A stretch of 64,000 nt of DNA. Source: a virus. The position numbers and the translations under genes are program-made. Of the stretch, positions 1,843 to 38,288 are shown in pieces (position 1 is the first letter of the stretch; every line of letters starts with the position of its first letter). Under the pieces are notes generated by a model. The model had not been told where the DNA came from. It saw nothing but the letters and a program-made list of their open reading frames with translations, and ran no database searches. The DNA lies in IMG/VR virus record IMGVR_UViG_3300045988_173816, positions 1 to 64,000 of that record. One strand, written 5' to 3'.

Positions 1843-4800
1843 ATGTTAAAAGTAAGTGGACACGGTTCAATTCGTAAAATTAAAGGTGGAGCTGCGGGTA
1901 TCATTACGCTTTCTGCTCTATTTTTGGGGTTGCAAGGAGTGAGTGCTGATGAGGTAACATCAACAAGTACAAATGAACTAACAACTGAGCTTTCATCTGC
2001 AACGGATAAGGGAGAAGTTTCCAAGGAAGAGACTAAAGTTGAAGATAAGAAAACAGAAGAAAAAACTGAGGTTAAATCTGATGTAGTTTCAACTGAAGCT
2101 TCTACTGAGAAGAAGGAAGAAGTAAAACCTTCTGAAAAAGAAGTCCCAAAAGATACAGATACAGAAACTTTTACTAAAGCTGAAAGTAAAGAGTTTGATA
2201 TTGCTAAGAAAGATGCTGTGGAAAATGGGGTTTCTGTAAAAGAAGACACTAAACCAAGCATTAAAGATTCTGAGAAAGAAGCTCAAGAAGATTTAGCAAA
2301 ACAAACAAAAGACTTGAAAGATGCTCAGAAAACACAAGTAGGTTCTGATGCGATTACTTCTTTGGATAAAGAAAAACTAACAGAAGCAGGAATTAAGGTT
2401 AAAGATGGGAAAGTCGAAATCTTTACAGACCTTGAAAAAATGGCTGCTTTTGTAAACCAACAAAGTAAAAATATTGCTAAAGATATTGAGTCTAAACACG
2501 GTATCGAAAAAGATGTGGCTTTAGCAACTAAAGAGCTTAAAGGTGCAGGTATTGAAGTAGTTGTTGGTGCAGAGGTTGTTAAATCTTCACCAGATGAAGC
2601 TTTAAAAGCAGTAGCTGAACTTCAAACACAAGTAGCAAGTGCTCTTAAAACTAAACAAGAGTTGGATAGTGCTTTTCTTGCTTTACAAGAACGTGCTAAA
2701 GCAGCAGGTTTGTTAACTAAAGAAGGTAAAACAGTTACTTTAGAAAGTGCTAAAGATGCTAAAGACTTTCTAGCAAAACAAACTGAAGAAGTAAATGCTT
2801 TGATTAAGTCTCTAACTGAGGGGAATAAACAAGTTAAAGCTGCAGTAGCTAAAGTTGAATCTTATGGTGTTAAAGTCACTACAACTGAGGGTACTAAAGT
2901 TGACACTGTTGAAAACCTAACTAAATTGGTTTCTGCACAAGTAAGTAAATTTGATGCTTTGATTAAGTCAATTGATGAAAGCAAAGGTCTAATTGATTCT
3001 ACCGTAGCTAAAGCAAAACAAGCAGGTGTATCCTTGGAGGGTGAAACTGTTGTTAATTTGGCTAAAGGTGAAGAAACTAGCTTGAAAGAAAAAGTTGCAA
3101 GTGCTTTGAAAGAGTTGGATGCTGCAACTCAAGTGCAAACTTCAACTAAAGCTGAGTTTGAGAAATTAGTTTCTGATGCACGCGCTAAAGGTTTAACTGT
3201 AAATATTACAGGTGCTAAGAAAGTTGAAGTTTCAGGGGTATCAAAAGAACTTGAAGCGATTAAAACTAAGATTGCACAGGCTTTGGCAAATAAAAATAAA
3301 GCACAAGTTGATTATGAGACTGCTTTGAAGAACTCACAAGAAGCTAGTCGTTTAGCAGAAGGTTCAACGGCTAAAAAAGAGGGTAATGTTTATAAACAAA
3401 GTTTGACCATTAAGTCCAATGGTACAAAAGGTTCTGTAAGTGTGAAGGTTACGGGTAGCGCTGAGATTGTATCTGTAGAATTGGTTGATCCTACAGGTGC
3501 AAAAGTACCTTCTGTTAAAACTTTAGCAGACTTAACTGCGTACACTGATTTTAGTAAGACTGGAAATTACACAGTTAATTATACTTTCCGAGCTAAAGAT
3601 AACGGTACAGGTTCAGTGGTATCTTCTGCAAACACTCAAGGTGTAGCAGCAGTAGAGGGTAAAGCTACAGGTACTTTGTCAGTTACTACTAAGGCTCCAG
3701 TTTCTACAAATGTAACTAATGAGTCTAAACCTACTGTTTTGGATATTGTTTTAGACTTTAGTTCATCTTACCGTTATAAGATTTTCGATTCAATTGATCA
3801 AGCTAAGATGTTAATTAAAGAGGCTTTGACAAATGATAAGTCAAAAGTAATTATTCAAGCTTATAATTACAATAGTAAAACTTCTTATGGCGTTCAAACT
3901 GGTGATTCCGAGGGGTATTCAACTACTTTATTAACTAAACAAGAAGCTTTAGATATTTTAGACAAACTAAAAGCATTGGCTAAACGTCAACCGTCCTTGG
4001 GTAGTTCAGATGCTTTGGGGTACAACGAGTATTTCGCTGCTATCGGTAAAACTTTTGGAGATAAAAATTACACAGATTCAACTTCTGCAACAGCCATTAT
4101 CCCATTCGAGGATGTAGTTCGTAAGTTCATCACAGATACAGATATCGTTTCAGTTATTCAGTTTACAGATGGTTGGACTGCAGGAGTATCTAGTAATGGT
4201 ACAACTGCTTCAGTCGAAAATATTGATATTACTTTTGCTGAATGGGCTAAGCATAGAGCTAAAACTTTCATGACTGTTATTAACAAAAACGTTACAAAGG
4301 CTTCTGAGGGTGATTCAGATAAAGACACAAACTCCGACCAGGCATTTGAAGCTATGCAACGCGTAGGACACCCAAATATCTATGATATGACAGGTAAAGA
4401 TCGTGCAGTTGTGGATAAAGAGTTGTTAGCTAAATTTAAAGAAACTGCAATTGAAAAAGTAACTTCTACAAAAGGCGAAGACCAACTAGTAACTGTATCT
4501 ATCACTGGTACTAAAACTGCAAAAGTTACTAAAGCAACTCTCAAAGGTGCTACTAACAAAGACTTACCTATTAAAGATGGTAAAGTTAACTTCTCTGAAA
4601 AACTACCAGACGGAACTTGGACAGTTAACTACGAACTTTCAGGAGATGGTGATGTTACCGTAACTGCAACTGTCGCAGGAAAAGAAGTAGTAAAAGAAAC
4701 TAAGAGTCTTAAAGAAGTTAAAGGTGCTGAAGGTACTTCTGCAACTAAGACTGATAACATTAAAGCATTGGTTGTTCCAAACAAACCTTCTACTGCTCCA

Positions 4801-5151
4801 ATTTCAGTTGAGGGGTTAGTTGTAACTGCTAAGTCTGTACGTTTAGGTACTGTTGAGTCTGACGCTACTACAGTAACTATTGAGAAAGAAGTTAAGAAAG
4901 CTACTTTCAAAGAAACTGTTTCTCCGATTACATTTGAGCGTGAGGTTGTTCCTACACAAGCAGAGGTAACTACGCATGATGTTTACGTTAAGACTCCAAA
5001 ACCTCAACCTAAACCTCAACCAGAAGGTAAAACATTGCCTAAAACTGGTGAATCTAGTGATATTTCTGTACAAGCTGCGGGTGCGGGTATCGGTTTAGTA
5101 GGTCTTCTAGCTTTAGCTGGAGCTTCAAAACGTTCTCGTAAAGAAGACTAA
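1843..5151 (+). CDS. Cell-wall-anchored surface protein: YSIRK-like signal peptide, long helical Ala/Lys/Glu-rich repeats, vWA-like domain, LPXTG sorting signal
   Basis: N-term GSIRKIKGGAAGIITLSALFLG; DxSxS-like motif VLDFSSSY; C-term LPKTGE plus hydrophobic stretch plus KRSRKED. Confidence 0.85.
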   Translation: MLKVSGHGSIRKIKGGAAGIITLSALFLGLQGVSADEVTSTSTNELTTELSSATDKGEVSKEETKVEDKKTEEKTEVKSDVVSTEASTEKKEEVKPSEKEVPKDTDTETFTKAESKEFDIAKKDAVENGVSVKEDTKPSIKDSEKEAQEDLAKQTKDLKDAQKTQVGSDAITSLDKEKLTEAGIKVKDGKVEIFTDLEKMAAFVNQQSKNIAKDIESKHGIEKDVALATKELKGAGIEVVVGAEVVKSSPDEALKAVAELQTQVASALKTKQELDSAFLALQERAKAAGLLTKEGKTVTLESAKDAKDFLAKQTEEVNALIKSLTEGNKQVKAAVAKVESYGVKVTTTEGTKVDTVENLTKLVSAQVSKFDALIKSIDESKGLIDSTVAKAKQAGVSLEGETVVNLAKGEETSLKEKVASALKELDAATQVQTSTKAEFEKLVSDARAKGLTVNITGAKKVEVSGVSKELEAIKTKIAQALANKNKAQVDYETALKNSQEASRLAEGSTAKKEGNVYKQSLTIKSNGTKGSVSVKVTGSAEIVSVELVDPTGAKVPSVKTLADLTAYTDFSKTGNYTVNYTFRAKDNGTGSVVSSANTQGVAAVEGKATGTLSVTTKAPVSTNVTNESKPTVLDIVLDFSSSYRYKIFDSIDQAKMLIKEALTNDKSKVIIQAYNYNSKTSYGVQTGDSEGYSTTLLTKQEALDILDKLKALAKRQPSLGSSDALGYNEYFAAIGKTFGDKNYTDSTSATAIIPFEDVVRKFITDTDIVSVIQFTDGWTAGVSSNGTTASVENIDITFAEWAKHRAKTFMTVINKNVTKASEGDSDKDTNSDQAFEAMQRVGHPNIYDMTGKDRAVVDKELLAKFKETAIEKVTSTKGEDQLVTVSITGTKTAKVTKATLKGATNKDLPIKDGKVNFSEKLPDGTWTVNYELSGDGDVTVTATVAGKEVVKETKSLKEVKGAEGTSATKTDNIKALVVPNKPSTAPISVEGLVVTAKSVRLGTVESDATTVTIEKEVKKATFKETVSPITFEREVVPTQAEVTTHDVYVKTPKPQPKPQPEGKTLPKTGESSDISVQAAGAGIGLVGLLALAGASKRSRKED

Positions 5152-5571: not shown

Positions 5572-5944
5572 GGGGTCGTCTGGATTCGACAGGCGGTTAG
5601 ACTTTTTAACCTCGCACCGAGTGACTACGTTATAGTCGAACTTAAACATAACTGCAAATAACAATGCACCAGTTCGTATGGCTGCCTAAGCCTTTGGCTT
5701 CGGTAGTTGATATGAACACAAGTAAAATAGTCGAATAGACGAGCGACTGAGATAGGTACCGGTATCTTTTAGTTGCTATAAATCTCGGTACTCGCAACTA
5801 AGGTTTCTCAACTTAGTGTGTTAAATAGAGATATAACTTTTAGTTTTGTGCGTTTCCTAAAAGTCGAATGTTGAAACGTAGCAGTGCGCAGTAAGGTTAA
5901 CTGGAAAGGTCGTTTGGACGTGGGTTCGACTCCCACCGGCTCCA
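5572..5944 (+). ncRNA. ssrA: tmRNA (transfer-messenger RNA), predicted tag ANNNAPVRMAA
   Basis: 5' GGGGTCGTCTGGATTCGACAGG hallmark; 3' T-arm GTGGG-TTCGACT-CCCAC with acceptor CGGCTCC pairing the 5' end; internal frame GCA AAT AAC AAT GCA CCA GTT CGT ATG GCT GCC TAA. Confidence 0.85.
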
Positions 5945-5977
5945 TAAACTAACGAAAAAAACATACACAAAGGGGAT

Positions 5978-9034: not shown

Positions 9035-9327
9035 ACAGGCTTGAGGGTATCTAACACCCCTGTAGGTTCCTTGTACGGTTTAAAAGATGATAGAAATGAA
9101 CTAGTTGGTGTGGAAGAGGTGCTTTTGTGAATTCTTCTAGTCAACAAAGTAACAAAGAACCGAGATATTCGGATTATTTGAGTTTAAACACTTTAAACAG
9201 TATGTTTCAATCTATAGCTTCAGTTTCTTATGTTGATTACAGAGTTGTAGCAACTGTTTTACATTTAATTATTGAACTTTGTTTAAAGAAAAGGTGTTCT
9301 CCCACCTATTAAGCGGAGGCGATAAAG

Positions 9328-9860
9328 ATTGTCCTAAATAAGACAATTAAACTGTTTCATTATGTAACTTAAATCTAATGGTAAAACCATTATTATCGAG
9401 CTTTGCTTGTAAATTTTGCCACTTGCCGATGAGGTGGGATATAAATGATTCGGTTCGTGAAATTTTGCCACATACTAGGTTGTGGGATATAAATAATCTA
9501 GTTTGTAAAAAAAATTGCCCTAAATAAGACAACTAAACTGTTTCGTTAAGTAAAACGTTAAACCAACGGAGATACCATTACCGTCAAGCTTTGCTTGTAA
9601 AGTTGGCAATTAAATCGACCTGAGTAAGTCACCTTAACTGCTCTAGGTGATACCATACCTTTGTACTTAGATACATAAAGTTGGCAAAAATTTGTCCTAA
9701 ACACGACATTAAACTATTTCGTCTCTTAGACGTTAAACGAGCGTTGACTTTAGGTAGCTACCTCACGGTTATCTAAACGAGCTTCTGATTAGGGTTTTCG
9801 GTATACACCGCGGGTGGGGATTCAAAACCGAAGTTTACTTGTAGTTGATTTGTAAATTTG
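9328..9860 (+). ncRNA. Three tandem units of about 180 nt, each opening with the box (A/T)TTG(T/C)CCTAAA(T/C)A(A/C)GACA-N-TAAACT(G/A)TTTC (orphan guide-RNA-scaffold-like units)
   Basis: Unit starts at 9328, 9514 and 9691. The same box follows the stop codon of the TnpB/Cas12-like ORF at 15951. Units A and B also share AGCTTTGCTTGTAAA. No credible ORF. Confidence 0.55.
9792..9833 (+). ncRNA. Hairpin GGTTTT/AAAACC with loop core CCGCGGGTGGGGA
   Basis: Same stem and loop core as 10301-10332; loop core shared with 10171-10213. Confidence 0.45.
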
Positions 9861-14499: not shown

Positions 14500-15948
14500 A
14501 TGGAGAAAGGTAAACAAATCTTTATCTATACGCGTAAACTAAATGCAAATAAGTCTCATAAAGAGCAGTTTGCAAAACGTTTCCATATGGCAGAAGATAT
14601 TTATAAGAAAACGCTGATTACATTGTTAAAGCGTTACTCCAAGATGAAGAAAGACCCCCTGTACAAGAGAGCTTACAAGTTCCCTAAAGGAAAAGAGCGT
14701 AATGCGATTTTGAAAGATTTAGGGGTTAAGTACGACCTTGTAGGTAAGTTCACGGCAGGTAAGATTGCTAATGATTACCGTAATGCTCGTAATTACAGTG
14801 ATTATATTCCCTCTGATACTGCTGTTCGATTAGGACATAGAGCTTGGGGTGCTTTTAGCAAAGTTAGGTTTGCTAAAGGTGCGGATAAAGTAAATCTTAA
14901 AGGTACGTTGATTTCATTTGAGGGTAGTAGAGATATAGGAATTAGCGTAAAAGGTAATGTTTTCACTATTTCTACTCGCAAAAAGAAAGTTTCATGTACT
15001 ATTCGTAACGAAAATGATGATTTTGAAGAAGAAGTCTTGCGTAATACATTGAAGTACAATCGTCTCGTTCGTAGGTTTGAGTTTGGAGAGTGGAATTATT
15101 ATGTACAATCTATTTTTGAAGGAACTCTCCCAACAAAGTACACTTCCGAACTTGAAGGTTCTGTAGGGATTGATATTGGTATATCAACCATTGCGGTATC
15201 TTCTTATTACCAAACAGAGTTAGAAGAACTAGCTAAAGATGTAACTTTGGATCAACAAGAGGTTACTCGTTTAAGTCGCAAACTTGACCGTCAACGACGA
15301 GCAAATAACCCTCATAAATACAATGAAGATGGTACTATTAAATGTGGTGTTTGTCAACCTTGGGTTGACTCTAAAGAGTATTTGAAAACCAAAGCAGAAC
15401 TTTCTGAGTTACACCGTAAATCAAAAGAACAGCGTAAATTGGCTCATAAAACTCTAGCTAACAGAATCGTCCGTATGGGTTCTACTTTTGTGGTTGAGCA
15501 GATATCCTTTAAAGAATTACAAGCTCGCACTAAGGAAACAAAAATCAATGAACATACTGGTAAATTTCAATCTAAGAAACGCTTTGGTAAAACTATTTTA
15601 CACAAAGCACCAGCTATGTTGATTGAGCAAATTCGTTATAAAACCATGTATCAAGGTAAAACTTTCATTCTTGCAAATACCAGAGAAGTAAAGGCTTCTC
15701 AGCTAAATCATTTAACTGAAGAGTACACAAAACCTTCTTCAAGTACACGTGTGAAGATGATTGGTGATGATTTAGTTCAACGTAACTTATACTCTGCTTA
15801 TTTACTTCAGCATGTAGGGTTAGATGGTGTAACAGTAGACATTAAGGGATGTAAATCAGATTTTGACACATTTTTACGCAATCAAGAGTTTACAATGTCT
15901 CAACTAACTACAGATTTAAAATCTATAGGTAAAGAATACTTTAATTAA
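14500..15948 (+). CDS. TnpB/Cas12-like RNA-guided-nuclease homolog (482 aa) without zinc-ribbon cysteines; third RuvC acidic residue apparently Asn
   Basis: RuvC-I VGIDIGISTIAV and RuvC-II FVVEQISFKEL present. TnpB-typical RRANNPHKYNEDGTIKCG present. The C-terminal motif reads DDLVQRNLYSAYLL where TnpBs carry (R/A)DxNAAxNI. No CxxC pairs. Strong RBS GAAAGGAGG. Confidence 0.7.
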   Translation: MEKGKQIFIYTRKLNANKSHKEQFAKRFHMAEDIYKKTLITLLKRYSKMKKDPLYKRAYKFPKGKERNAILKDLGVKYDLVGKFTAGKIANDYRNARNYSDYIPSDTAVRLGHRAWGAFSKVRFAKGADKVNLKGTLISFEGSRDIGISVKGNVFTISTRKKKVSCTIRNENDDFEEEVLRNTLKYNRLVRRFEFGEWNYYVQSIFEGTLPTKYTSELEGSVGIDIGISTIAVSSYYQTELEELAKDVTLDQQEVTRLSRKLDRQRRANNPHKYNEDGTIKCGVCQPWVDSKEYLKTKAELSELHRKSKEQRKLAHKTLANRIVRMGSTFVVEQISFKELQARTKETKINEHTGKFQSKKRFGKTILHKAPAMLIEQIRYKTMYQGKTFILANTREVKASQLNHLTEEYTKPSSSTRVKMIGDDLVQRNLYSAYLLQHVGLDGVTVDIKGCKSDFDTFLRNQEFTMSQLTTDLKSIGKEYFN

Positions 15949-15950
15949 AA

Positions 15951-16198
15951 ACTTGTCCTAAATAAGACTTTAAACTGTTTCGGAGTTAATTTGGAGACTT
16001 CGTGAGGAGGTCGTTAATTCAAACACAGGTTTGATTGACTTCTGAGTGACTAGGTGTTTATTCTTGACTCAAAAAAGCAATGTACATAAGAGGTAACTCT
16101 CACTTGAGGGGTATCCAGTAGTAACTTCTGAGTAGACAATAACATTTATGTTGCAGCTTTGTCTAATAGATAGGTTCATTAAAAAACTAAATATTCGA
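15951..16198 (+). ncRNA. Putative guide-RNA scaffold or leader between the TnpB/Cas12-like ORF and its array
   Basis: Starts 3 nt after the stop with the box CTTGTCCTAAATAAGACTTTAAACTGTTTCG, also found 3 times at 9.3-9.7 kb; no ORF. Confidence 0.45.
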
Positions 16199-19282: not shown

Positions 19283-19999
19283 GTGCGAATTTTGTTTTTA
19301 AACAAGTCTGAAATTTTAGCTCGATTGAGAGACTTAGATTTAAAGTCAGAAGGAGTATCTTCACCAACTGAGGTGCTAATTGTAGGTGGTTCTGCACTAG
19401 CCTTACTAGGTGAACCTCGACTAACTTCGGATATTGATTACCTTGGTTCTCTTAACTATTTACCTAAAGAGTACCTAGCAAGTTTAGGTTTTTCAAATAA
19501 TGTGAAGACTTTTTTCGCTTTGTACGGTACTGATGAATATAGCGCTTTAGAACTGAGTGGGTTTAAGAATTTAATCGTTAAAGTTCTGTCTTACGAGGAC
19601 ATAACAGTTATGAAGTTGTTCTCTTCACGCAAGAAAGATTTAGAAGACCTAATTCAATACATACTTCCTAAATTGACAAGTTATTCTAAATTAAAGCAGA
19701 AGATTGAAACTTATAAAGAGTATTATTTCTTTAATTCTGACTTACCTGAATTGAACCTGAACCAGTTTGACTTAATTAGAGACAGATTAAGAAAAGAACA
19801 GAGGGTTATTTTGGTAGAAGATGCTTCAGTTTCTTTAGGTACTTTCTTAAAGTCACTTCGATTATTGACTTATACTCAGAACACCTATGGAAGAGATTCT
19901 ATGTCTCACTGGTTAGATAAACCTTTAATTGAAGTTGCAACTCAAACTAGTCTGCTGGGGTATCTTTATGCTCACAAGGGTTTAAAAGTTTTAATTTAA
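19283..19999 (+). CDS. minimal nucleotidyltransferase (MNT/DUF6036-like) domain protein
   Basis: LIVGGSALALLGEPRLTSDIDYLG NTase-fold motif; start uncertain (GTG 19283 or TTG 19292). Confidence 0.5.
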   Translation: MRILFLNKSEILARLRDLDLKSEGVSSPTEVLIVGGSALALLGEPRLTSDIDYLGSLNYLPKEYLASLGFSNNVKTFFALYGTDEYSALELSGFKNLIVKVLSYEDITVMKLFSSRKKDLEDLIQYILPKLTSYSKLKQKIETYKEYYFFNSDLPELNLNQFDLIRDRLRKEQRVILVEDASVSLGTFLKSLRLLTYTQNTYGRDSMSHWLDKPLIEVATQTSLLGYLYAHKGLKVLI

Positions 20000-21198: not shown

Positions 21199-21228
21199 CT
21201 TGCACTTTATTTTGATTTGTAGTATAAT
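21199..21228 (+). promoter_or_regulatory. sigma-70-type promoter
   Basis: TTGCAC, 18 nt, TATAAT. Confidence 0.55.
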
Positions 21229-21253
21229 AAACTTATCACAGATGGAGGTTTCT

Positions 21254-21778
21254 ATGTATAGAGATAGTGAATTAACTCAGTCTACTTATAAATTAAACCA
21301 AGTAGCAAAGATGTTAAGTGTAACTCCTACTACATTAAGGAATTGGGAGAAGATAGGGAAGGTTGAGTTTGATAGAACTCCTACAAATATTAGATGTCTC
21401 CCTAGAAATAAGTTGATAGACTTGTTAGATGAACAAGGTTTGTATTACAATGACAGTAATACTCAACAAAAAGATGTTATTTATGCTAGAGTTTCGTCTC
21501 ATGACCAAAAGAAACAAGGTGATTTAGATAGTCAAGTTCATTTCTTAGTGACTGAGATTAAAGATTTACAAAATGTCGTTGTACTTTCAGAAGTTGGTTC
21601 TGGTGTAGATGATAAACGAAAGAAACTCCAACAACTTATTAAAATGGTTATGAGCAATGAAGTGAATAGGGTTTTTATTGCTAATAGAGATAAATTGGCT
21701 CAAGTGGGTTTTCACTATTTAGAGACAGTCTTTAATGCTAAAGGTGTTGAGATTATAGAAGTTAAACAAGATATGTAA
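21254..21778 (+). CDS. tnpA: IS607-type serine recombinase (MerR-like HTH plus resolvase catalytic domain)
   Basis: YKLNQVAKMLSVTPTTLRNWEKIGK HTH and VIYARVSSHDQKKQGDLDSQ catalytic-Ser motif; start set to the ATG at 21254 behind RBS GATGGAGG (the track start lies in the promoter). Confidence 0.7.
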   Translation: MYRDSELTQSTYKLNQVAKMLSVTPTTLRNWEKIGKVEFDRTPTNIRCLPRNKLIDLLDEQGLYYNDSNTQQKDVIYARVSSHDQKKQGDLDSQVHFLVTEIKDLQNVVVLSEVGSGVDDKRKKLQQLIKMVMSNEVNRVFIANRDKLAQVGFHYLETVFNAKGVEIIEVKQDM

Positions 21779-21819
21779 GAACGGTCTATATAATAAACCT
21801 ACATAGAAAGGAGACATAC

Positions 21820-23154
21820 ATGCGTAAGCGAAAATATATTGTGGTTACACAATTACACGAGCAAAATAACAAAGATTTGATTGAATATGTAGAAGTTGCT
21901 CGTCATGCTTACGCTAAAGCTGTGCGTGAAACTTTCTATTGTATTAAAAACTTAGAAGAGTTTAATAAGTCTAGTTTTAACACTTATTTACAAGACTCTT
22001 ACAGTATTACCAAACGAACTGCTAACTCAATTATATCAGATGCTCAAGGTCAAATAAATAGGCTCAAAGGGTTAAAATGTTATGAGAAAACTCAGTTAGA
22101 GCGAAAAATAAAGCAGTTGGAAACAAATGTTATTCCAAAACTAGAACAAAAACGAGATGATACCTCAACTATGTTGAGGTTAGGTTTAGCGGTATCCTTA
22201 GTTTCTCAACGAAATTTAAGGCGCAAGATAGTTGCTAAGAAACAAAAGTTAAATCGCTTAAAACAAAAATTAGCTAATTTAACTTATCAGATTGAAACTT
22301 CTAGTTTTAAATTGTGTTTTGGTACAAAATACTTGTTGCAAAGAGATTATACTGCCTTTGTAGAAGGTAGAGACAGTCAGATGTCTTTCGTGGGTGCGAA
22401 ATGTGAAACCTCTTGTAATCATCAACTACAACTTAGGTATAACTCTAAAAATAATCAATTTGAACTTAAGATGCGAAAAGATTTTGGTGGATTTAAAGAC
22501 TTAAAAGGCTCTGGTCGTTTCGTACTTGGTAAACTTTACTTTAGACATCATAAGGATAAGATAGTCCGTATCCTTAAAGAGAAGAATAGTCCTCTAAGTT
22601 TTAAAATTATCAAGAGAAATAATAGATACTATCTCTATTGTACGTTTGAAGTACAACTTGATTCTGATGATTTCTTAACACGTTCTACTTATGGTACTAT
22701 TGGTTTAGACTTCAATAAAGGGTTCATTACTTTGTCTGAGATTAATCGATATGGTCACTTAGTTCAAACTCAGTTTTTACCTTATCGGTTTAAGTCTGGG
22801 AATAGAACTAGAACCGATTTACAACAGATTGTAGCTAATGTAGTGCATTTGTCATTGAATGAGGGTAAGGATTTATGTATTGAAAATTTGAACTTTGATA
22901 GAAAAAGAGCTAAAACCGAAACAAAACAAGGTAAGAAGTATAATGATATGATTCATTCTCTTGCATATAGTCAGTTTGTAGATTTAGTAGAAACTATAGC
23001 TTACAGGAATAAAGTATTTATTAGGAAGGTCAATCCAGCTTGGACGAGTTGGATTGCAAAACAGAAATATTGTCCACAAATGAAGCTAAATGTTCATGTC
23101 GGAGCTTCATTTGTAATTGCAAGACGTGGACAAGGTTACAAAGACACCGTATAA
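21820..23154 (+). CDS. tnpB: TnpB (IS607-associated type, 444 aa)
   Basis: RuvC-I IGLDFNKG, RuvC-II LCIENLNF, C-term NPAWTSWIAK...HVGASFVIARRG. Confidence 0.75.
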   Translation: MRKRKYIVVTQLHEQNNKDLIEYVEVARHAYAKAVRETFYCIKNLEEFNKSSFNTYLQDSYSITKRTANSIISDAQGQINRLKGLKCYEKTQLERKIKQLETNVIPKLEQKRDDTSTMLRLGLAVSLVSQRNLRRKIVAKKQKLNRLKQKLANLTYQIETSSFKLCFGTKYLLQRDYTAFVEGRDSQMSFVGAKCETSCNHQLQLRYNSKNNQFELKMRKDFGGFKDLKGSGRFVLGKLYFRHHKDKIVRILKEKNSPLSFKIIKRNNRYYLYCTFEVQLDSDDFLTRSTYGTIGLDFNKGFITLSEINRYGHLVQTQFLPYRFKSGNRTRTDLQQIVANVVHLSLNEGKDLCIENLNFDRKRAKTETKQGKKYNDMIHSLAYSQFVDLVETIAYRNKVFIRKVNPAWTSWIAKQKYCPQMKLNVHVGASFVIARRGQGYKDTV

Positions 23155-23421
23155 GTTCTTTGAACAGACAACCTTATACAAATGTATTAACTGCAAGACA
23201 AGTTAGCATTTCCCTGTAAGGTGGTGTTAAGTAGAAGCTTTAACAATAAGTGCTATTGTGTAGCTTTTAAAGTTGAAATAGTATGAGTTAAAGTGGAATA
23301 GGTTAACTGTAAGACCTTAAGTTGAAAAACTTTAAAATTGACCTTAATGATTTTATAATTATTGAGTTACGGTTGCTTGTCCGTAGTATTTTAATAGAAT
23401 TAAAAGTGAAGGAGAATTACC

Positions 23422-28359: not shown

Positions 28360-28393
28360 TATTTTATGAAGTTTAGTGAAAGGGGTTCGAAAA

Positions 28394-29620
28394 ATGGAAA
28401 TTAGTTTGACATCCAAATTACGTATTGTGTTTCAATCTGAAGATGATAGAAAAAGTGTTTTTGCTACTCTCATTGCTTATCGTGACGCGTGTAATTTTGT
28501 TTCACAATATATTTTCGATCATAATTTTGTTCTAAAACAAAGAGAATTACAAGCTACTCTTTATCATGAGCTTCGTAATCGATTTGGTTTGAAATCGCAA
28601 ATGGTATTATCTGTTTTTAGAACAGTTATTGCGCAATATAAAACGGTTCAAACGCAACTTCGTAAACAACGAGTTTGGGATGGTTATAAAAAGGATAATC
28701 ACGGAAAAGATGTTCCTAATTATATTAAAAAGGATTTGACTTTTTTATGGAAACCAATTAAATTTAAACGTCCGCAATTAGATTTAGTACGTAATCGCGA
28801 CTATAGTTTCAAAAATGATATGTTGTCTATGAACACAATTAATGGACGTGTTTTCGTCAAAGTATATTATCTTGAAGAAAATCCGTATTTCGATGGTTCA
28901 TGGAAATTAGGAACAGGGAAAGTAGTTCGAAGTGGAAAGCATTGGTTCTTTCATGTCTCAGCAACTAAAGAAGTTTCTGATTTCGAGATGCAAAACTTAA
29001 AACATGTAGTTGGAATCGATCGTGGATTGCGTCAAGTCTTAACGACTTATGATGAAAAAGGTCAAACTCGTTTCGTTAATGGTGCATTTATTTCGAAGAA
29101 ACGCAAACATTATGTTCAATTAAGATCCTGTCTTCAAGCTAAAGGGACGAAATCAGCTAAACGTCGTTTACGTTCTCTAAGTGGACGAGAATCCCGTTGG
29201 ATGAGTGATGTTAATCATCAACTATCTAAGACACTCGTTGAAACTTATGGTAAACAGACGTTGTTTATACTTGAAGATTTAACTGACGTAACCTTCGACA
29301 CGGTTCACTCACGTAGAAAAGAGAATCGATATGAGCATCATTCTTGGTCATTTTATGACTTGGAACAAAAACTGAGATATAAAGCTCGCTTAAACGAAAG
29401 TGAAGTCGTTTTAGTGGGTGCTCATTATACTAGTCAGCGATGTCCTAAATGTGGAACAATTGATAAATCGAACCGTGATAAAAACATTCACCAATATACC
29501 TGTTCTAATTGCGGTTACTCGAGTAATGACGACCGAGTAGGTGCTATGAACATTTATGAACTAGGTAAATGGTTTGTATCAGGTATTGAGAAACCCTCTT
29601 TTGTAATTTCAAATGAATAG
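28394..29620 (+). CDS. tnpB: TnpB, IS605/IS1341-type RNA-guided endonuclease with an intact catalytic set
   Basis: RuvC-I VVGIDRGL, RuvC-II FILEDLTDV, zinc ribbon YTSQRCPKCG...CSNCGY, RuvC-III NDDRVGAMNI; no tnpA nearby. Confidence 0.85.
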   Translation: MEISLTSKLRIVFQSEDDRKSVFATLIAYRDACNFVSQYIFDHNFVLKQRELQATLYHELRNRFGLKSQMVLSVFRTVIAQYKTVQTQLRKQRVWDGYKKDNHGKDVPNYIKKDLTFLWKPIKFKRPQLDLVRNRDYSFKNDMLSMNTINGRVFVKVYYLEENPYFDGSWKLGTGKVVRSGKHWFFHVSATKEVSDFEMQNLKHVVGIDRGLRQVLTTYDEKGQTRFVNGAFISKKRKHYVQLRSCLQAKGTKSAKRRLRSLSGRESRWMSDVNHQLSKTLVETYGKQTLFILEDLTDVTFDTVHSRRKENRYEHHSWSFYDLEQKLRYKARLNESEVVLVGAHYTSQRCPKCGTIDKSNRDKNIHQYTCSNCGYSSNDDRVGAMNIYELGKWFVSGIEKPSFVISNE

Positions 29621-35211: not shown

Positions 35212-35616
35212 ATGAGTGATTTCCACCAAGAATTAGTAAACGCATACCCTTTGGTAAGTCAATTAAACGAACTAGCTTACAATTTAGTTTATCAAGATAC
35301 TTCTTTTCTTGACTTTGTAGATTCCATTTGTCAACAAGCTAATGTTGAGTATATAGAGTTTCGAGATAAACCTAGCACTATTCCTAGTGGTATCTTTGTT
35401 TTGCGCTTCAAGTACAAAAATATAAACAGTGAAATTGAAGTACATATTTTTGAGTTGGTCAGTAATGCCTTGCCTTACACAGATTACGATTTAGTTGGTC
35501 GCATTTCAGAAAAGATTGATGCTAGAAAGCGTGAGTTAGACGTTGTTTTAGGTAATTTAGATTATCAAATCAACCAACATTTAGAAAAAGTAGCAAAAAT
35601 CACAGAAAACCATTGA
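35212..35616 (+). CDS. hypothetical protein (134 aa)
   Basis: Start moved to the ATG at 35212 behind RBS GGAG. Confidence 0.6.
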   Translation: MSDFHQELVNAYPLVSQLNELAYNLVYQDTSFLDFVDSICQQANVEYIEFRDKPSTIPSGIFVLRFKYKNINSEIEVHIFELVSNALPYTDYDLVGRISEKIDARKRELDVVLGNLDYQINQHLEKVAKITENH

Positions 35617-35641
35617 CATTTCACTTAGTTTGTGCTATACT
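35613..35641 (+). promoter_or_regulatory. sigma-70-type promoter driving the 35.65-36.6 kb noncoding island
   Basis: TTGACA, 17 nt, TGCTATACT. Confidence 0.75.
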
Positions 35642-35649
35642 ATTTATTG

Positions 35650-36560
35650 TTGGTTGGTAATCGTTTGTGAATCTAACTTTAGTGATCGGTTGGATGATTT
35701 GGATACTTCACAACGATAAGGCTTACAGTTTGTGAAAGGACTGTAAGTCGTAGGTGTCTTACGACACCGAAAGACGTTTCAAATGAACTTCTTTTCTTTT
35801 TCGGATTTAGGACTGTCGAAGGTTCTAGGTTCGTAGGTGAGTTATAGTTCACCTAACGATTAGGGTTCATGTTTGAACCTCTAGTTTTATTTTGCGTAGG
35901 TACTTGTGAAAGGGTATCTATGCATAAAGTTGCTTCATTTATAGGTTGTAACTTTAGTTAGACATAAAAGTAAAACATGATAAGACTGAAATAGTCTTGG
36001 ATTGTATAGAGGGTAGTTGCAGTCGCCTCAACTCCGACTCTTGTGCAGTACACTGCACAAGAGTAAGGTGAGAAACAACATTAGTTGGAAACTTTAATTT
36101 TGTTAAGCAATTAAAGAACTGTTTCGTCTAATTGGTTTTCTGGATAATTTGCGTGATTCAGAAATACTTCCTTTCTATTTATTTTTGGCTTGCAATCTGT
36201 GATAGGATTGTGAGTCTTAGAAACCTATAAAGTTTCTAACTTACGTTTAAAAACGTTAAGTTCACCTTATATTATTTTGCTAGGTTACAGATTATAAAAG
36301 GTCTGTAGCTTATAGAAACTTTTAGGTTTCTTAACGTTCCTACGTGGTAGGTTCTCCAAATATTATTCTAGGTTGCAAATTGTCAAAGGTTTGCAACTTA
36401 TAGAAGCCTTTTGGTTTCTAAAACAATGATTTGATTCGTTGTTCATCGTTCTTCTTTAATTTAAATGGGTTGTAGACTGTCAAAGGTTTATGACTCTTAG
36501 GTAACATTGTTACCCTACTGTACCGAACTATCGGTACCTTTTAGACTGTCGAGATGATAG
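35650..36560 (+). ncRNA. About 0.9-kb ORF-free transcript with at least 7 hairpin modules bearing the loop TGTNAAAG, each followed by 1-2 further hairpins
   Basis: Hairpins at 35722-35747, 35808-35827, 35897-35920, 36189-36214, 36284-36309, 36372-36397 and 36469-36494. Loops are TGTGAAAG, TGTCGAAG, TGTGAAAG, TGTGATAG, TATAAAAG, TGTCAAAG, TGTCAAAG. Stems are all different but complementary. Box TTAAAGAACTGTTTCGTCTAATTG lies at 36111-36134. Confidence 0.6.
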
Positions 36561-36842
36561 GCGAAACCAATGAATAGAACACTTTTCTTAAAGTGCTTTT
36601 TCGTTGGTTTTTAAATACGGCTGAGAAGTCGCATAATTGGTTTTATAAGATTACCTCAAAAGGCTAGAATTGTTGTTAAACTAAGGTCTTAAGTAAATTT
36701 GTTGGTGGTTTGATTTTGGTTATCTTAGTAACTCTTCTTTAAAATTTGTTACACGCTAGTTTATCTAGCTTCTTTAAATACTAAATAAACTAAAACAGAA
36801 AGCTTTACAAAAGAAATAGACAGTTTGCAACAGTTCGGTTAA

Positions 36843-36911: not shown

Positions 36912-38288
36912 ATGGTAAAAATCGATCTAAATCAAATCTCTGCTGAACAAATGGCTCAAATGCAACAAGTGTTGGCTAAAGACACTGCGGGAGCTAAACG
37001 TTCACCACTTACTGAGCTTGGTGAAGAGCTTGGAATTCAAATTTTCAACCGTGCCAAAGACGGTTACACAAACCAAAAACTCTTGGTTTACATTCCTCGC
37101 ATGGGGTATCCTACTGTTGATGAAAAAGGTGACTTGATTCCGTTCCGTGTTCCTATGCGTAGCGTAACAATGAAAGCCTTCAACAACGGTGATTCTAAGA
37201 GCAACTGGAAAGGTTCTATGCCTTACTTTGAAGAAGCTAAAGAAGAGAACCGTATCTTTGCACCTTGGGGTCAATCAGGTAACAATGAGTACCTTCGTGA
37301 CTACATTAGTGCTGCATTTGACATGCGCCGTGCGAAAATTGAGCTTGAAGTAGCTCGTCAAGGGTATTCTTCTGTTGCTGAGTTGGTTGCAAACGAACCT
37401 CAGTACAAAGAAGAAAAAGACTTCACTAAAACGTTTATGGAATATGTGTTCTTGCAAGTTCAAAGTAACTCAGACATGTGGTTCCCAATCGTAGTGATTC
37501 CTACTAAAAAGGATGCTCATGGTAAGTTCACAACTACACCAGAAACAAAACCTTTGCTTGATGAAGATGGAAACCCAACTTCTGTGACGAAACCAATTCC
37601 ACGTATTGACAATTATGGGAAACCTATTTGTGATAACGATGGAAACCAATTGTTTGAGGAACGTGTCTTTGCTCACACGATTGAAGGCGAATTGAAGTGG
37701 CATAAACTCACTACAAAAGCTTTCACTGAAAAATTGGTGAAAGCCCTAGAGTTGCAAGCACAACAACCGGGTATCACTGAGCTTGGTGGGTTCTTCGTTC
37801 TCTTCAATTATGAAATTGACGAGAAAGCTCTTGAAAAAGCGAAGAACAACGGTGGTGCTGCTTACGAAAGTGAAGATTCTAAGTCAGGTGCTTCATTGAA
37901 TATTCAAGTTATGCAAAAAGTGGCTCCGTTCACAGACTTGTACGACTTGACTGAGTACCTTGGTCTTCAAGAGCAGTGGGATAAAGAAGCGCAAGCTCAC
38001 TACAACGCTCTTCATCTTGTACAGACTGTTCGTGCTTGTGAATTGCTTTCTGACGAAGAGGTAAATGACAAGCTGGATAAATTGTATGGTGGACTTGAGA
38101 AAGTGAAAGCTGAGATTGAAAACATTCAAGCGACTGCTGAAAACCTTAAAAAAGGTGTAGCAGCAGGTGGTTCGACTAACCATATCGCTAATTCTGCAGC
38201 TAACCGACTAGGTGCTAACGCTGGTCAACTTCCTCCAGGTGTGGATGTTGACCCAGCAAGTGCTTTGGATTTCGGTGCTGACGAATAA
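36912..38288 (+). CDS. abundant-looking protein with acidic C-terminal tail, possible ssDNA-binding protein
   Basis: Codon usage differs from neighbours (CGT, GGT, AAC, TTC rich); C-term DVDPASALDFGADE; replication/recombination gene context; function not established. Confidence 0.35.
   Translation: MVKIDLNQISAEQMAQMQQVLAKDTAGAKRSPLTELGEELGIQIFNRAKDGYTNQKLLVYIPRMGYPTVDEKGDLIPFRVPMRSVTMKAFNNGDSKSNWKGSMPYFEEAKEENRIFAPWGQSGNNEYLRDYISAAFDMRRAKIELEVARQGYSSVAELVANEPQYKEEKDFTKTFMEYVFLQVQSNSDMWFPIVVIPTKKDAHGKFTTTPETKPLLDEDGNPTSVTKPIPRIDNYGKPICDNDGNQLFEERVFAHTIEGELKWHKLTTKAFTEKLVKALELQAQQPGITELGGFFVLFNYEIDEKALEKAKNNGGAAYESEDSKSGASLNIQVMQKVAPFTDLYDLTEYLGLQEQWDKEAQAHYNALHLVQTVRACELLSDEEVNDKLDKLYGGLEKVKAEIENIQATAENLKKGVAAGGSTNHIANSAANRLGANAGQLPPGVDVDPASALDFGADE

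Follow-up and report, generated by a model that had tools for sequence, protein, structure and literature searches.

Why would a virus hold the loop of a small hairpin constant, preserve the pairing of its stem and let the sequence of that stem change from one copy to the next? The question is raised by two islands of hairpins in the DNA analysed here, the 64,000 nucleotides at positions 1–64,000 of the IMG/VR virus record IMGVR_UViG_3300045988_173816 (the window). A first-pass annotation of the window had described 11 hairpins and proposed that they are selected structures which are recognised through the loop and belong to no known family. That proposal is supported and has stood up to the tests that might have overturned it. 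The hairpin, here called H1, is the first element of a repeated module and is a lineage-specific, previously undescribed RNA family with a tRNA flavour.

The H1 hairpins of the window

Stems were extended around every loose match to the loop. The plus strand holds 82 such matches, 12 of them with a stem of at least 5 bp, and 11 of these 12 are the clustered copies. There are exactly 11 H1 hairpins, all on the plus strand, four at 487–828 (island A) and seven at 35720–36496 (island B); every hairpin and loop that had been listed was found in its place. The motif TGTNAAAGG was observed 11 times in the window compared with an expectation of 3.7 ± 1.9.

A covariance model was built and run with filters off on both strands. 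It scores the 11 copies at 33–52 bits, and the next match reaches 13.5 bits. The copies of island A lie at 487–516 (loop TGTCAAAG at 498–505; 41.3 bits; −15.0 kcal/mol, z = −4.5), 598–627 (loop TGTCAAAG at 609–616; 42.1 bits), 697–726 (loop TGTTAAAG at 708–715; 33.1 bits) and 799–828 (loop TGTAAAAG at 810–817; 38.9 bits). Those of island B lie at 35720–35749 (loop TGTGAAAG at 35731; 42.6 bits), 35803–35832 (loop TGTCGAAG at 35814; 42.4 bits), 35894–35923 (loop TGTGAAAG at 35905; 35.6 bits), 36187–36216 (loop TGTGATAG at 36198; 38.3 bits), 36282–36311 (loop TATAAAAG at 36293; 46.2 bits), 36370–36399 (loop TGTCAAAG at 36381; 52.4 bits) and 36467–36496 (loop TGTCAAAG at 36478; 44.4 bits).

The stems consist of 10–12 contiguous pairs when G·U is allowed, and only the copy with its loop at 708 has an internal mismatch. 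RNAfold adds a closing pair between the first and last loop bases (U0·G7), which gives a helix of 12–13 bp and a loop of 6 nt. Folding energies of the 11 copies range from −12.4 to −16.3 kcal/mol, with z-scores of −3.9 to −6.9 relative to shuffled sequences. The stems had been described as 6–9 bp long; they are longer, with 11 covarying pairs and the possible U0·G7 pair in addition.

Covariation and strand

The open reading frame (ORF) at 36912–38288, downstream of island B, was used as a query and returned 18 related loci. Every one of these that includes the upstream region has 4–7 hairpins of the same type there, on the plus strand only. With the covariance model, and with no fixed loop pattern required, 105 distinct copies of H1 were collected, 4–13 per island and in the same places within the clade.

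Covariation was assessed in an ungapped alignment of 79 distinct copies. Paired cells account for 93.7% of this alignment, a value that is somewhat circular because the sample was partly chosen by pairing, compared with 34–46% when the partners are slid. Both sides change in 11 of 12 pairs (266 cells in total), and none of 500 shuffles reaches the observed covariation score. Two observations speak against circularity. The covariance model separates members from noise cleanly, and compensatory changes occur at the same array position in related phages, as in GGACTTTAAAT/GTTTAAAGTTC, GGGCTTTGCGC/GTGCAAGGTTC and GGATTTTGGAC/GTCTAAAATTC, each of which precedes the same second hairpin. The compensatory pairing that had been claimed for the stems is thus strong in homologous loci. 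The outermost modelled pair (−12, +19; counted from U0) forms in 44% of copies, which is the chance level, and the helix therefore ends sharply at 11 pairs.

The first-pass annotation had left the choice between RNA and single-stranded DNA open. In the 105 copies 273 of 1155 stem pairs (24%) are G·U, and the forward strand folds with a mean energy of −13.9 kcal/mol compared with −4.8 kcal/mol for the reverse complement, being the more stable of the two in 105 of 105 copies. These two results settle the choice in favour of an RNA, transcribed from the plus strand. The frequency of G·U pairs and the poor folding of the reverse strand rule out a DNA cruciform or single-stranded DNA element.

Anatomy of the module

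H1 has a helix of fixed length, 11 covarying pairs plus the U·G closing pair, or 12 bp in all. The loop follows the pattern U-n-U-n-R-n-A-G, in which U0, U2, R4, A6 and G7 are fixed and n1, n3 and n5 vary, and its length differs from 8 nt in only two of the 105 copies. U0, U2 and G7 are present in 100% of copies, as is the pyrimidine that precedes the loop (Y−1); position 4 is a purine in 100% (A 85%, G 15%) and A6 is found in 94%. The variable positions are themselves biased, with G 83%, U 11% and A 5% at n1, A 46%, C 44%, G 7% and U 4% at n3, and A 85%, U 10% and C 4% at n5. In the adjoining helix A−2 (87%), G+8 (96%) and U+9 (90%) are preferred, and the pair (−10, +17) is a G·U wobble in about 80%. 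Three unpaired bases, N-U-A, follow the helix: N+19 is A in 52%, G in 23% and U in 23%, U+20, two bases past the helix, is invariant (100%), and A+21 is found in 77%. Position +22 is G in 83%.

One or two hairpins of free sequence come next. A second hairpin after H1 had been noted before, and it does start at +22 in 83 of the 105 family members, compared with 17% of shuffles; behind the first H1 of island B it occupies 35753–35768. A third hairpin frequently follows it. Copies at the same array position in different phages keep the structure of hairpins 2 and 3 and not their sequence. The module is completed by a U/C-rich, G-poor linker, and such linkers precede each H1 by about 10–30 nt, in the relatives as well as in the window. 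CTCCT is present in 27 and TCCTT in 41 of 105 linkers, compared with about 4 and about 10 expected from composition. These motifs are anti-Shine–Dalgarno-like, and many second hairpins begin with AGGAG or AGGGG. Modules are spaced 83–118 nt apart (83–111 nt within the window), 4–13 to an island, and are situated either in a phage tRNA gene cluster or in a dedicated operon.

Organisation of the two islands

From its sequence, island B is best described as a self-contained non-coding operon of about 960 nt, in the order promoter, three modules, an omegaRNA scaffold, four modules and two terminal hairpins, one small and one long. The predicted promoter (35613–35641, plus strand) is of the near-consensus sigma-70/sigma-A type, with TTGACA, a 17-nt spacer and a TG-extended TATACT (11 of 12 matches), and its region is among the few patches of DNA conserved in relatives. 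At the other end (36546–36612, plus strand; −23.4 kcal/mol, z = −4.4) a small hairpin at 36546–36560 is followed by a long hairpin with a U run at 36563–36612, which we take as the terminator-like end of the operon. The element GACTGTCGWGATGATAGGCAAAGCCAA at this end is conserved in relatives, and a similar one occurs in L271, a distant relative. A short element, GACTGTCGAGATGATAGGCGAAACCAA (36546–36575), closes every island B and may be a regulatory site for the downstream gene. In L271, which is without the H1 family, a similar element (GAAGATAGTAGGCGAAAGCCAAC, at 9330–9375) lies upstream of the homologous ORF.

Island A has its four modules between tRNA-Ser genes on the same strand. A promoter scan gave nothing convincing there, the TTGACA/TACAAT pair at 125–147 being separated by only 11 nt. 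Of the promoters that had been placed upstream of both islands, that of island B is therefore upheld and that of island A is not. A promoter on the minus strand was also considered, since the complement of the loop reads TTGACA and one site was flagged; all genes are on the plus strand, so the flagged site is regarded as a by-product of the motif.

The scaffold that splits island B into three and four copies, which had been overlooked, is an IS605-orfB-II omegaRNA at 35976–36122 (plus strand), matched over its full length by Rfam with 145.7 bits, and is not a member of the H1 family. No TnpB gene precedes it, and five relatives (L001, L007, L009, L011 and L015) have the island without it. On account of this absence we regard it as an insertion; it looks like a solo, MITE-like (miniature inverted-repeat transposable element) insertion unrelated to the hairpins. 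A remnant similar to the 3′ end of this IS605-type element precedes island A at 318–357 (TTTAAAGAACTG...TTCGTCTAATTG; compare TTAAAGAACTGTTTCGTCTAATTG at 36106–36135). Both non-coding islands seem to collect IS605-type debris.

A separate observation concerns the tRNA genes beside island A. Positions 408–427 are a perfect 20-nt reverse complement of 73–92, the 3′ part of tRNA-Ser(UGA), on the same strand and 315 nt downstream. The complement covers the 3′ half of the T-arm and the 3′ strand of the acceptor stem and is absent in L074 and L137. If co-transcribed, the two could form a 20-bp duplex.

Distribution of the family

Among more distant relatives, eight copies of H1 were found where the protein encoded downstream is 60% identical and 13 where it is 53% identical, with none at 27% (L271). 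At the same genomic spot (9270–9570) L271 has different repeated hairpins with stems of 9–11 bp, each followed by the motif GGGGAARAYGAATGAGTCTCTCC. H1 copies lie scattered among tRNA genes in the window, L137, L266 and L074. The DNA of the islands aligns between relatives only in short patches, namely the promoter, single hairpins and the 3′ end, and the protein flanking island B is 76–93% identical between the same relatives.

Pattern scans of IMG/VR gave matches with real stems from this clade only. None of 185,579 bacterial and archaeal species genomes contained a strict three-hairpin pattern, a strict pattern gave seven chance matches in GTDB genomes, and the matches to a loose pattern in bacterial genomes and other viruses were chance matches without stems. 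The family was not found in GenBank phages or in Rfam. The clade itself occurs in well over a hundred human saliva and Human Microbiome Project (HMP) assemblies.

A display of one loop as a possible function

The geometry of loop and helix is constant, copy number ranges from 4 to 13 and the remainder of the island turns over fast. These features suggest that display of the loop is the active property and that dose matters. Searches for targets within the window were negative: the stem arms, treated as guides, have no exact matches elsewhere and one-mismatch matches at the chance level; the linkers, treated as antisense to phage mRNAs, give 87 10-mer matches compared with 86 for a reversed control; and a cis target of the loop, CTTTNACA, is not enriched (25 found, 22.7 expected). 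In view of the fast turnover, the lack of targets and the variable copy number, we read the array as multivalent display. Our preferred reading, held tentatively and with somewhat less than even confidence, is that the array is a sponge or decoy RNA that titrates or occupies a trans-acting factor. The transcript would present many copies of one loop and the factor would be titrated stoichiometrically in trans. Expression is suggested by sequence features of island B, the TG-extended promoter and the terminal hairpin with its U run, and a dosage effect by the range of copy number in relatives.

This logic has precedents. In CsrB/RsmZ-type sponges, pseudo-ToxI and RNA anti-CRISPRs, many hairpins carry one short motif and act stoichiometrically on a protein. 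H1 arrays resemble CsrB-type sponges, and also tRNA-like processing signals, in logic and are members of neither. Seven H1 copies lie between one promoter and one terminator-like hairpin, and poor conservation outside the motif and a variable copy number are shared with CsrB/RsmZ and with phage decoys. The loop, however, is UnUnRnAG in place of the GGA motif with its CsrA/RsmA partner, and H1 differs from sponges and decoys in the fixed length of its helix and its fixed 3′ junction, and in being phage-encoded and placed among tRNA genes. The stems of ToxI and of RNA anti-CRISPRs are sequence repeats, which those of H1 are not.

More speculative is the identity of the client, for which the likeliest candidate is a protein that reads anticodon arms. 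The segment Y−1 U0 n1 U2 n3 R4 n5 aligns with Y32 U33 N34 U35 N36 R37 N38, the universal signature of an anticodon loop, here with U always in the middle. Read in this way, the copies imply the anticodons GUA (37%), GUC (34%), UUC (9%), GUG (7%) and GUU (4%), and 83% of copies contain U-G-U-N. Three of the phage's own tRNA loops match implied anticodons, those of tRNA-Tyr (CUGUAAA), tRNA-Asn (CUGUUAA) and tRNA-Asp (UUGUCAC). U-G-U is the identity element of tRNA-guanine transglycosylase (TGT) and YGUN that of colicin E5; TGT and the colicin E5-type anticodon nucleases act on Tyr, His, Asn and Asp tRNAs, and tRNA anticodon stem-loops are their minimal substrates. The motif suits anticodon loops whose central base is U, which it might imitate or complement, the consensus of such loops being nearly self-complementary, and both possibilities point to tRNAs for NAN codons. 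In the mimic form of the decoy reading the H1 loop would imitate positions 32–38 of an anticodon arm, and the 11–12-bp helix would match the length of stacked anticodon and D stems. Early in infection, the array might then shield tRNAs of the host or of the phage, or draw off a tRNA enzyme. The likeness to an anticodon stem-loop lies in Y-U-G-U-N-R-N, with the four GUN anticodons and a minority of UUN; the differences are the 8-nt loop, the two extra invariant bases A6 and G7, the 12-bp helix and the lack of a cloverleaf.

Several observations weigh against the decoy and its proposed client. The loop is 8 nt (6 nt if the U·G pair closes) on a helix of 11–12 bp, rather than 7 nt on 5 bp; a mimic leaves the invariance of A6 and G7 unexplained; and G is missing at n1 in 17% of copies. 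The same motif complements the 7-nt loops of the phage tRNA-Gln (CUUUGAC) and tRNA-Glu (UUUUCAC), and a mimic cannot be told from a binder by sequence alone. A scan of about 50 window ORFs gave no tRNA- or RNA-binding family. The ORF at 36912–38288, the constant neighbour of island B, was rejected as a partner: it has no Pfam or PHROG match, its structural model has a predicted local distance difference test score (pLDDT) of 66 with no PDB fold match at E < 0.4, and its homologue in L271 (27% identity) lies downstream of a different hairpin set. Hairpins 2 and 3 keep their structure between phages, which pure spacers would not need. Finally, the invariant U+20 and the sharp end of the helix suit a processing site at least as well.

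A possible processing signal

A processing site is the basis of the strongest alternative, which we consider rather unlikely as the main function. Here H1 would be a handle that imitates the 12-bp acceptor/T-arm stack of a precursor tRNA without an encoded CCA. Host RNase P would cut at the 5′ base of H1 and RNase Z after N+19, before U+20, to release an H1 minihelix, possibly CCA-tailed, together with fragments that carry hairpins 2 and 3 and the linker. The same anatomy would be expected if the phage had an endonuclease dedicated to these hairpins, which gauged the distance between the loop and the base of the helix.

The constant helix length, the ungapped alignment and the near-absence of loops other than 8 nt are all in keeping with such a handle, as is the sharp end at the chance-level pair (−12, +19). 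With U0·G7 the helix is 12 bp, the combined length of acceptor and T stems, and beyond it come an unpaired base, in most copies a purine, U+20 and usually A+21, the arrangement seen in the phage tRNAs. All 26 phage tRNAs that were checked lack CCA, and T follows the discriminator in 20 of 26 when scored by script, or in about 24 of 26 after correction of the register by eye. Streptococcaceae tRNAs are all CCA-less, and RNase Z cuts just after the discriminator to leave a trailer with U at its 5′ end (PMC8549757); in CCA-less precursors of B. subtilis the corresponding bases are U74 A75 or UAA (PMC1874595). Modules are found among tRNA genes. There is also a viral precedent in the TMERs of MHV68, a cluster of eight units, each with a tRNA-like element and two hairpins, that are processed by tRNase Z (PMC4838037).

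Against a handle, RNase P and RNase Z recognise shape, which leaves the invariant loop unexplained, and this loop is not a T-loop: the UUCRANY pattern (T54-Ψ55-C56-R57-A58) is missing and there are 8 nt rather than 7. Neither ARAGORN nor the tRNA model of Rfam (RF00005) makes a call that overlaps any module. Island B contains no tRNAs, only 1–3 unpaired bases separate H1 from hairpin 2, and hairpins 2 and 3 and the linkers have neither conserved sequence nor targets in the window, which would be odd for a payload. Among other tRNA-like processing signals are mascRNA and the t-elements of plant mitochondria. H1 differs from these and from TMERs in that it is a minihelix only, has no T-loop sequence and is missed by tRNA models. 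The handle accounts better than the decoy for the fixed helix length and the invariant U+20, and not for the loop. The two are compatible, since RNase P and RNase Z could release a minihelix that then acts as the decoy.

Other readings of the loop

The decoy reading can be narrowed to an RNA counter-defence against tRNA-targeting immunity, a version that we think unlikely. The arrays would then be rod-shaped look-alikes of anticodon arms, mostly U-G-U-N, that is of the queuosine-family tRNAs for Tyr, His, Asn and Asp. An anticodon nuclease might cut them in place of tRNAs or be competitively inhibited by them, or they might hijack TGT, and they would so complement the tRNAs encoded by the phage.

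Less probable again is that H1 provides sites for a dedicated phage RNA-binding protein with no connection to tRNA, acting in RNA stabilisation, localisation, packaging or the assembly of a ribonucleoprotein, so that the likeness to anticodons would be a coincidence. Restriction of the family to one clade and its absence from bacterial genomes would suit a phage-encoded partner, and most proteins of the window belong to no known family. The alternation of fixed and variable loop positions, the frequent G·U at (−10, +17) and the junction U suggest a single surface read at several points. However, no candidate gene consistently adjoins the arrays: the upstream ORF differs among relatives and the downstream ORF is also present in L271, which is without the family. 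The placement of copies among tRNA genes would also be left unexplained.

That H1 binds tRNAs rather than imitating them strikes us as improbable. The loop would offer a codon-like triplet, n3-R4-n5, mostly AAA, CAA, CGA or GAA, with U2, A6 and G7 pairing to A37, U33 and Y32, and each hairpin would form a kissing complex with one tRNA, that for Lys, Gln, Arg or Glu, at its anticodon loop. An array of such hairpins might mask these tRNAs from anticodon nucleases or sequester them. The Lys, Gln and Glu tRNAs carry xm5s2U34, and tRNA-Lys is the target of PrrC. The complementarity is extensive. GUCAAAG complements the loop of the phage tRNA-Gln (CUUUGAC) exactly over all 7 nt, GUGAAAG pairs at 7 of 7 positions with tRNA-Glu (UUUUCAC), one pair being G·U, and GUAAAAG at 6 of 7 with tRNA-Lys (CUUUUAA). 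Fixed loop positions would face the universal Y32, U33 and R37 and variable ones would face 34, 36 and 38, and one array position alternates between CGA and CGU in different phages, both of which are read by tRNA-Arg(ICG). On the other hand, other switches at the same position are non-synonymous (AAA/AAU, CAA/CAU), and the variants UUUCAACG and UUUAAACG alter A6, the proposed partner of the universal U33. The t6A37 of tRNA-Lys would block the pair with U2, a masked tRNA would also be lost to translation, and loop type shows no positional link to the neighbouring tRNA gene.

That the islands are guide-RNA arrays, of the TIGR-Tas stem-loop or CRISPR type and with the variable arms as spacers, is scarcely credible, although they are phage-borne tandem arrays with variable palindromes, a short conserved loop-like element of about 8–9 nt that starts with UG, 11-nt variable flanks and variable linkers, in a window that has TnpB-type genes and omegaRNAs. 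TIGR spacers are 8–12 nt long and TIGR loops mostly 9 nt, and TIGR arrays need unpaired dual spacers with box C/D elements and a Nop-domain Tas protein (PMC12045711; bioRxiv 10.64898/2026.09.09.750476). In H1 both variable arms pair with one another (93.7% of cells), the palindrome extends right to the 8-nt loop with no unpaired spacer between, and the period is 83–118 nt (83–111 nt in the window) rather than the regular unit of about 36 nt of the dual-repeat type. Pfam detected no Nop domain in about 40 ORFs of the 64-kb window of a phage of about 285 kb, a search of limited sensitivity where Tas proteins are divergent, and the adjacent ORF gave no match to a Nop-like fold and none in the PDB at E < 0.4. 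The stem arms have no targets in the window, and the omegaRNA is missing from the island in relatives. A CRISPR array would have near-identical direct repeats of 25–36 nt between unique spacers, together with cas genes. The H1 units have no identical repeats and share no more than the 8-nt loop and some bases beside it, and no cas genes or domains were found besides the TnpB-type ORFs elsewhere in the window.

Known families that were rejected

H1 matches no RNA family described so far. Whether run at gathering thresholds or with E ≤ 5, Rfam returned only omegaRNA (RF02998/RF03065), at 35976–36122 and 23171–23376, and nothing for the hairpins; their linkage to omegaRNA/TnpB is further dismissed by the five relatives in which the scaffold is missing from the island. 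The hairpins are neither REP-like elements nor terminators, two possibilities that the first-pass annotation had named as decisive against a new family. REP/BOX repeats are rejected in that the H1 stems are variable in sequence and confined to one strand and two islands, with none in the 185,579 species genomes. An intrinsic terminator is rejected since a scan flags only one of the 11 copies and H1 is followed by N-U-A and a second hairpin, not by a U tract. Repeats of a type III toxin–antitoxin system (ToxI-like) are identical and 34–36 nt long, whereas H1 units differ in sequence and are 83–118 nt apart; the window ORFs were not scanned with PADLOC.

A search of the literature on arrays of anticodon-mimic hairpins in phages found nothing relevant. 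Phage tRNA clusters have long been known to contain stable RNAs whose role is unknown, such as the species 1 and 2 RNAs of T4, which are not tRNAs. The H1 family resembles these in being co-located, and presumably co-processed, with phage tRNAs. It differs in being a multi-copy family, species 1 and 2 being single-copy RNAs without a shared loop motif.

Implications

The present analysis offers those working on phage RNA and anti-defence systems a clean definition of the family rather than a mechanism. More than 100 covarying copies provide a statistical support that is rare for so short an RNA, and the covariance model can be used to annotate H1 islands in oral viromes. The tRNA world is indicated from both ends of H1, by a loop like that of an anticodon arm and by a base like the acceptor end of a CCA-less tRNA. 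To our knowledge, phage tRNAs, repair enzymes and protein inhibitors are the only means so far described in the contest between phages and anticodon nucleases. If the array is a decoy it would add an RNA arm to that contest, and as a counter-defence it would be the first that is RNA-based and aimed at tRNA-targeting immunity. If instead H1 is a handle, it would be the bacterial-virus counterpart of the herpesvirus TMERs.

Source phage and neighbouring genes

The relatives are metagenome contigs of 226–297 kb from IMG/VR, ENA, Logan and NCBI, from HMP and saliva samples, and no GenBank phage matches the window in DNA or protein. We therefore attribute the window to a giant phage of the human mouth that has not been cultured. 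Proteins of the LPXTG and PcsB type encoded in the window suggest that its host is probably Gram-positive and Streptococcus-like; the PcsB-like hydrolase itself did not identify a host, as its matches are confined to the phage clade.

ORFs of any size in the window are all on the plus strand. The RNA genes comprise nine tRNA genes and one transfer-messenger RNA (tmRNA) at 5572–5947, whose tag peptide, ANNNAPVRMAA, is identical in L137 and is ANNNAPVEMVA in L074, and hence conserved among relatives. Proteins of the window include an SbcCD-like pair, a Toprim protein, an LPXTG protein and a PcsB-like CHAP hydrolase. A 1102-residue ORF at 1843–5151, directly after the tRNA genes and hairpins of island A, has a C-terminal LPXTG cell-wall anchor. 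A DUF6036 nucleotidyltransferase ORF at 19283–19999 is conserved in relatives (L272, 34–741) and could matter if the 3′ ends of RNAs undergo modification.

Two TnpB-like ORFs (OrfB_IS605) are present at 14500–15948 and 28376–29620, the second of which also has a Cas12f1-like TNB domain. Rfam detected no omegaRNA behind either of them, and the first is followed by a gene-free gap of 660 nt. An IS607-like unit occupies 21200–23376, with a MerR and serine-resolvase ORF at 21200–21778, a 444-residue ORF without a Pfam match at 21820–23154 and, at its end, an IS605-orfB-I RNA at 23171–23376 (174.8 bits); the RNA is shared with L015 and the resolvase ORF with L272. In the relative L007, a RAGATH-18 RNA (56.6 bits) lies at 15912–15988, about 6 kb downstream of island B.

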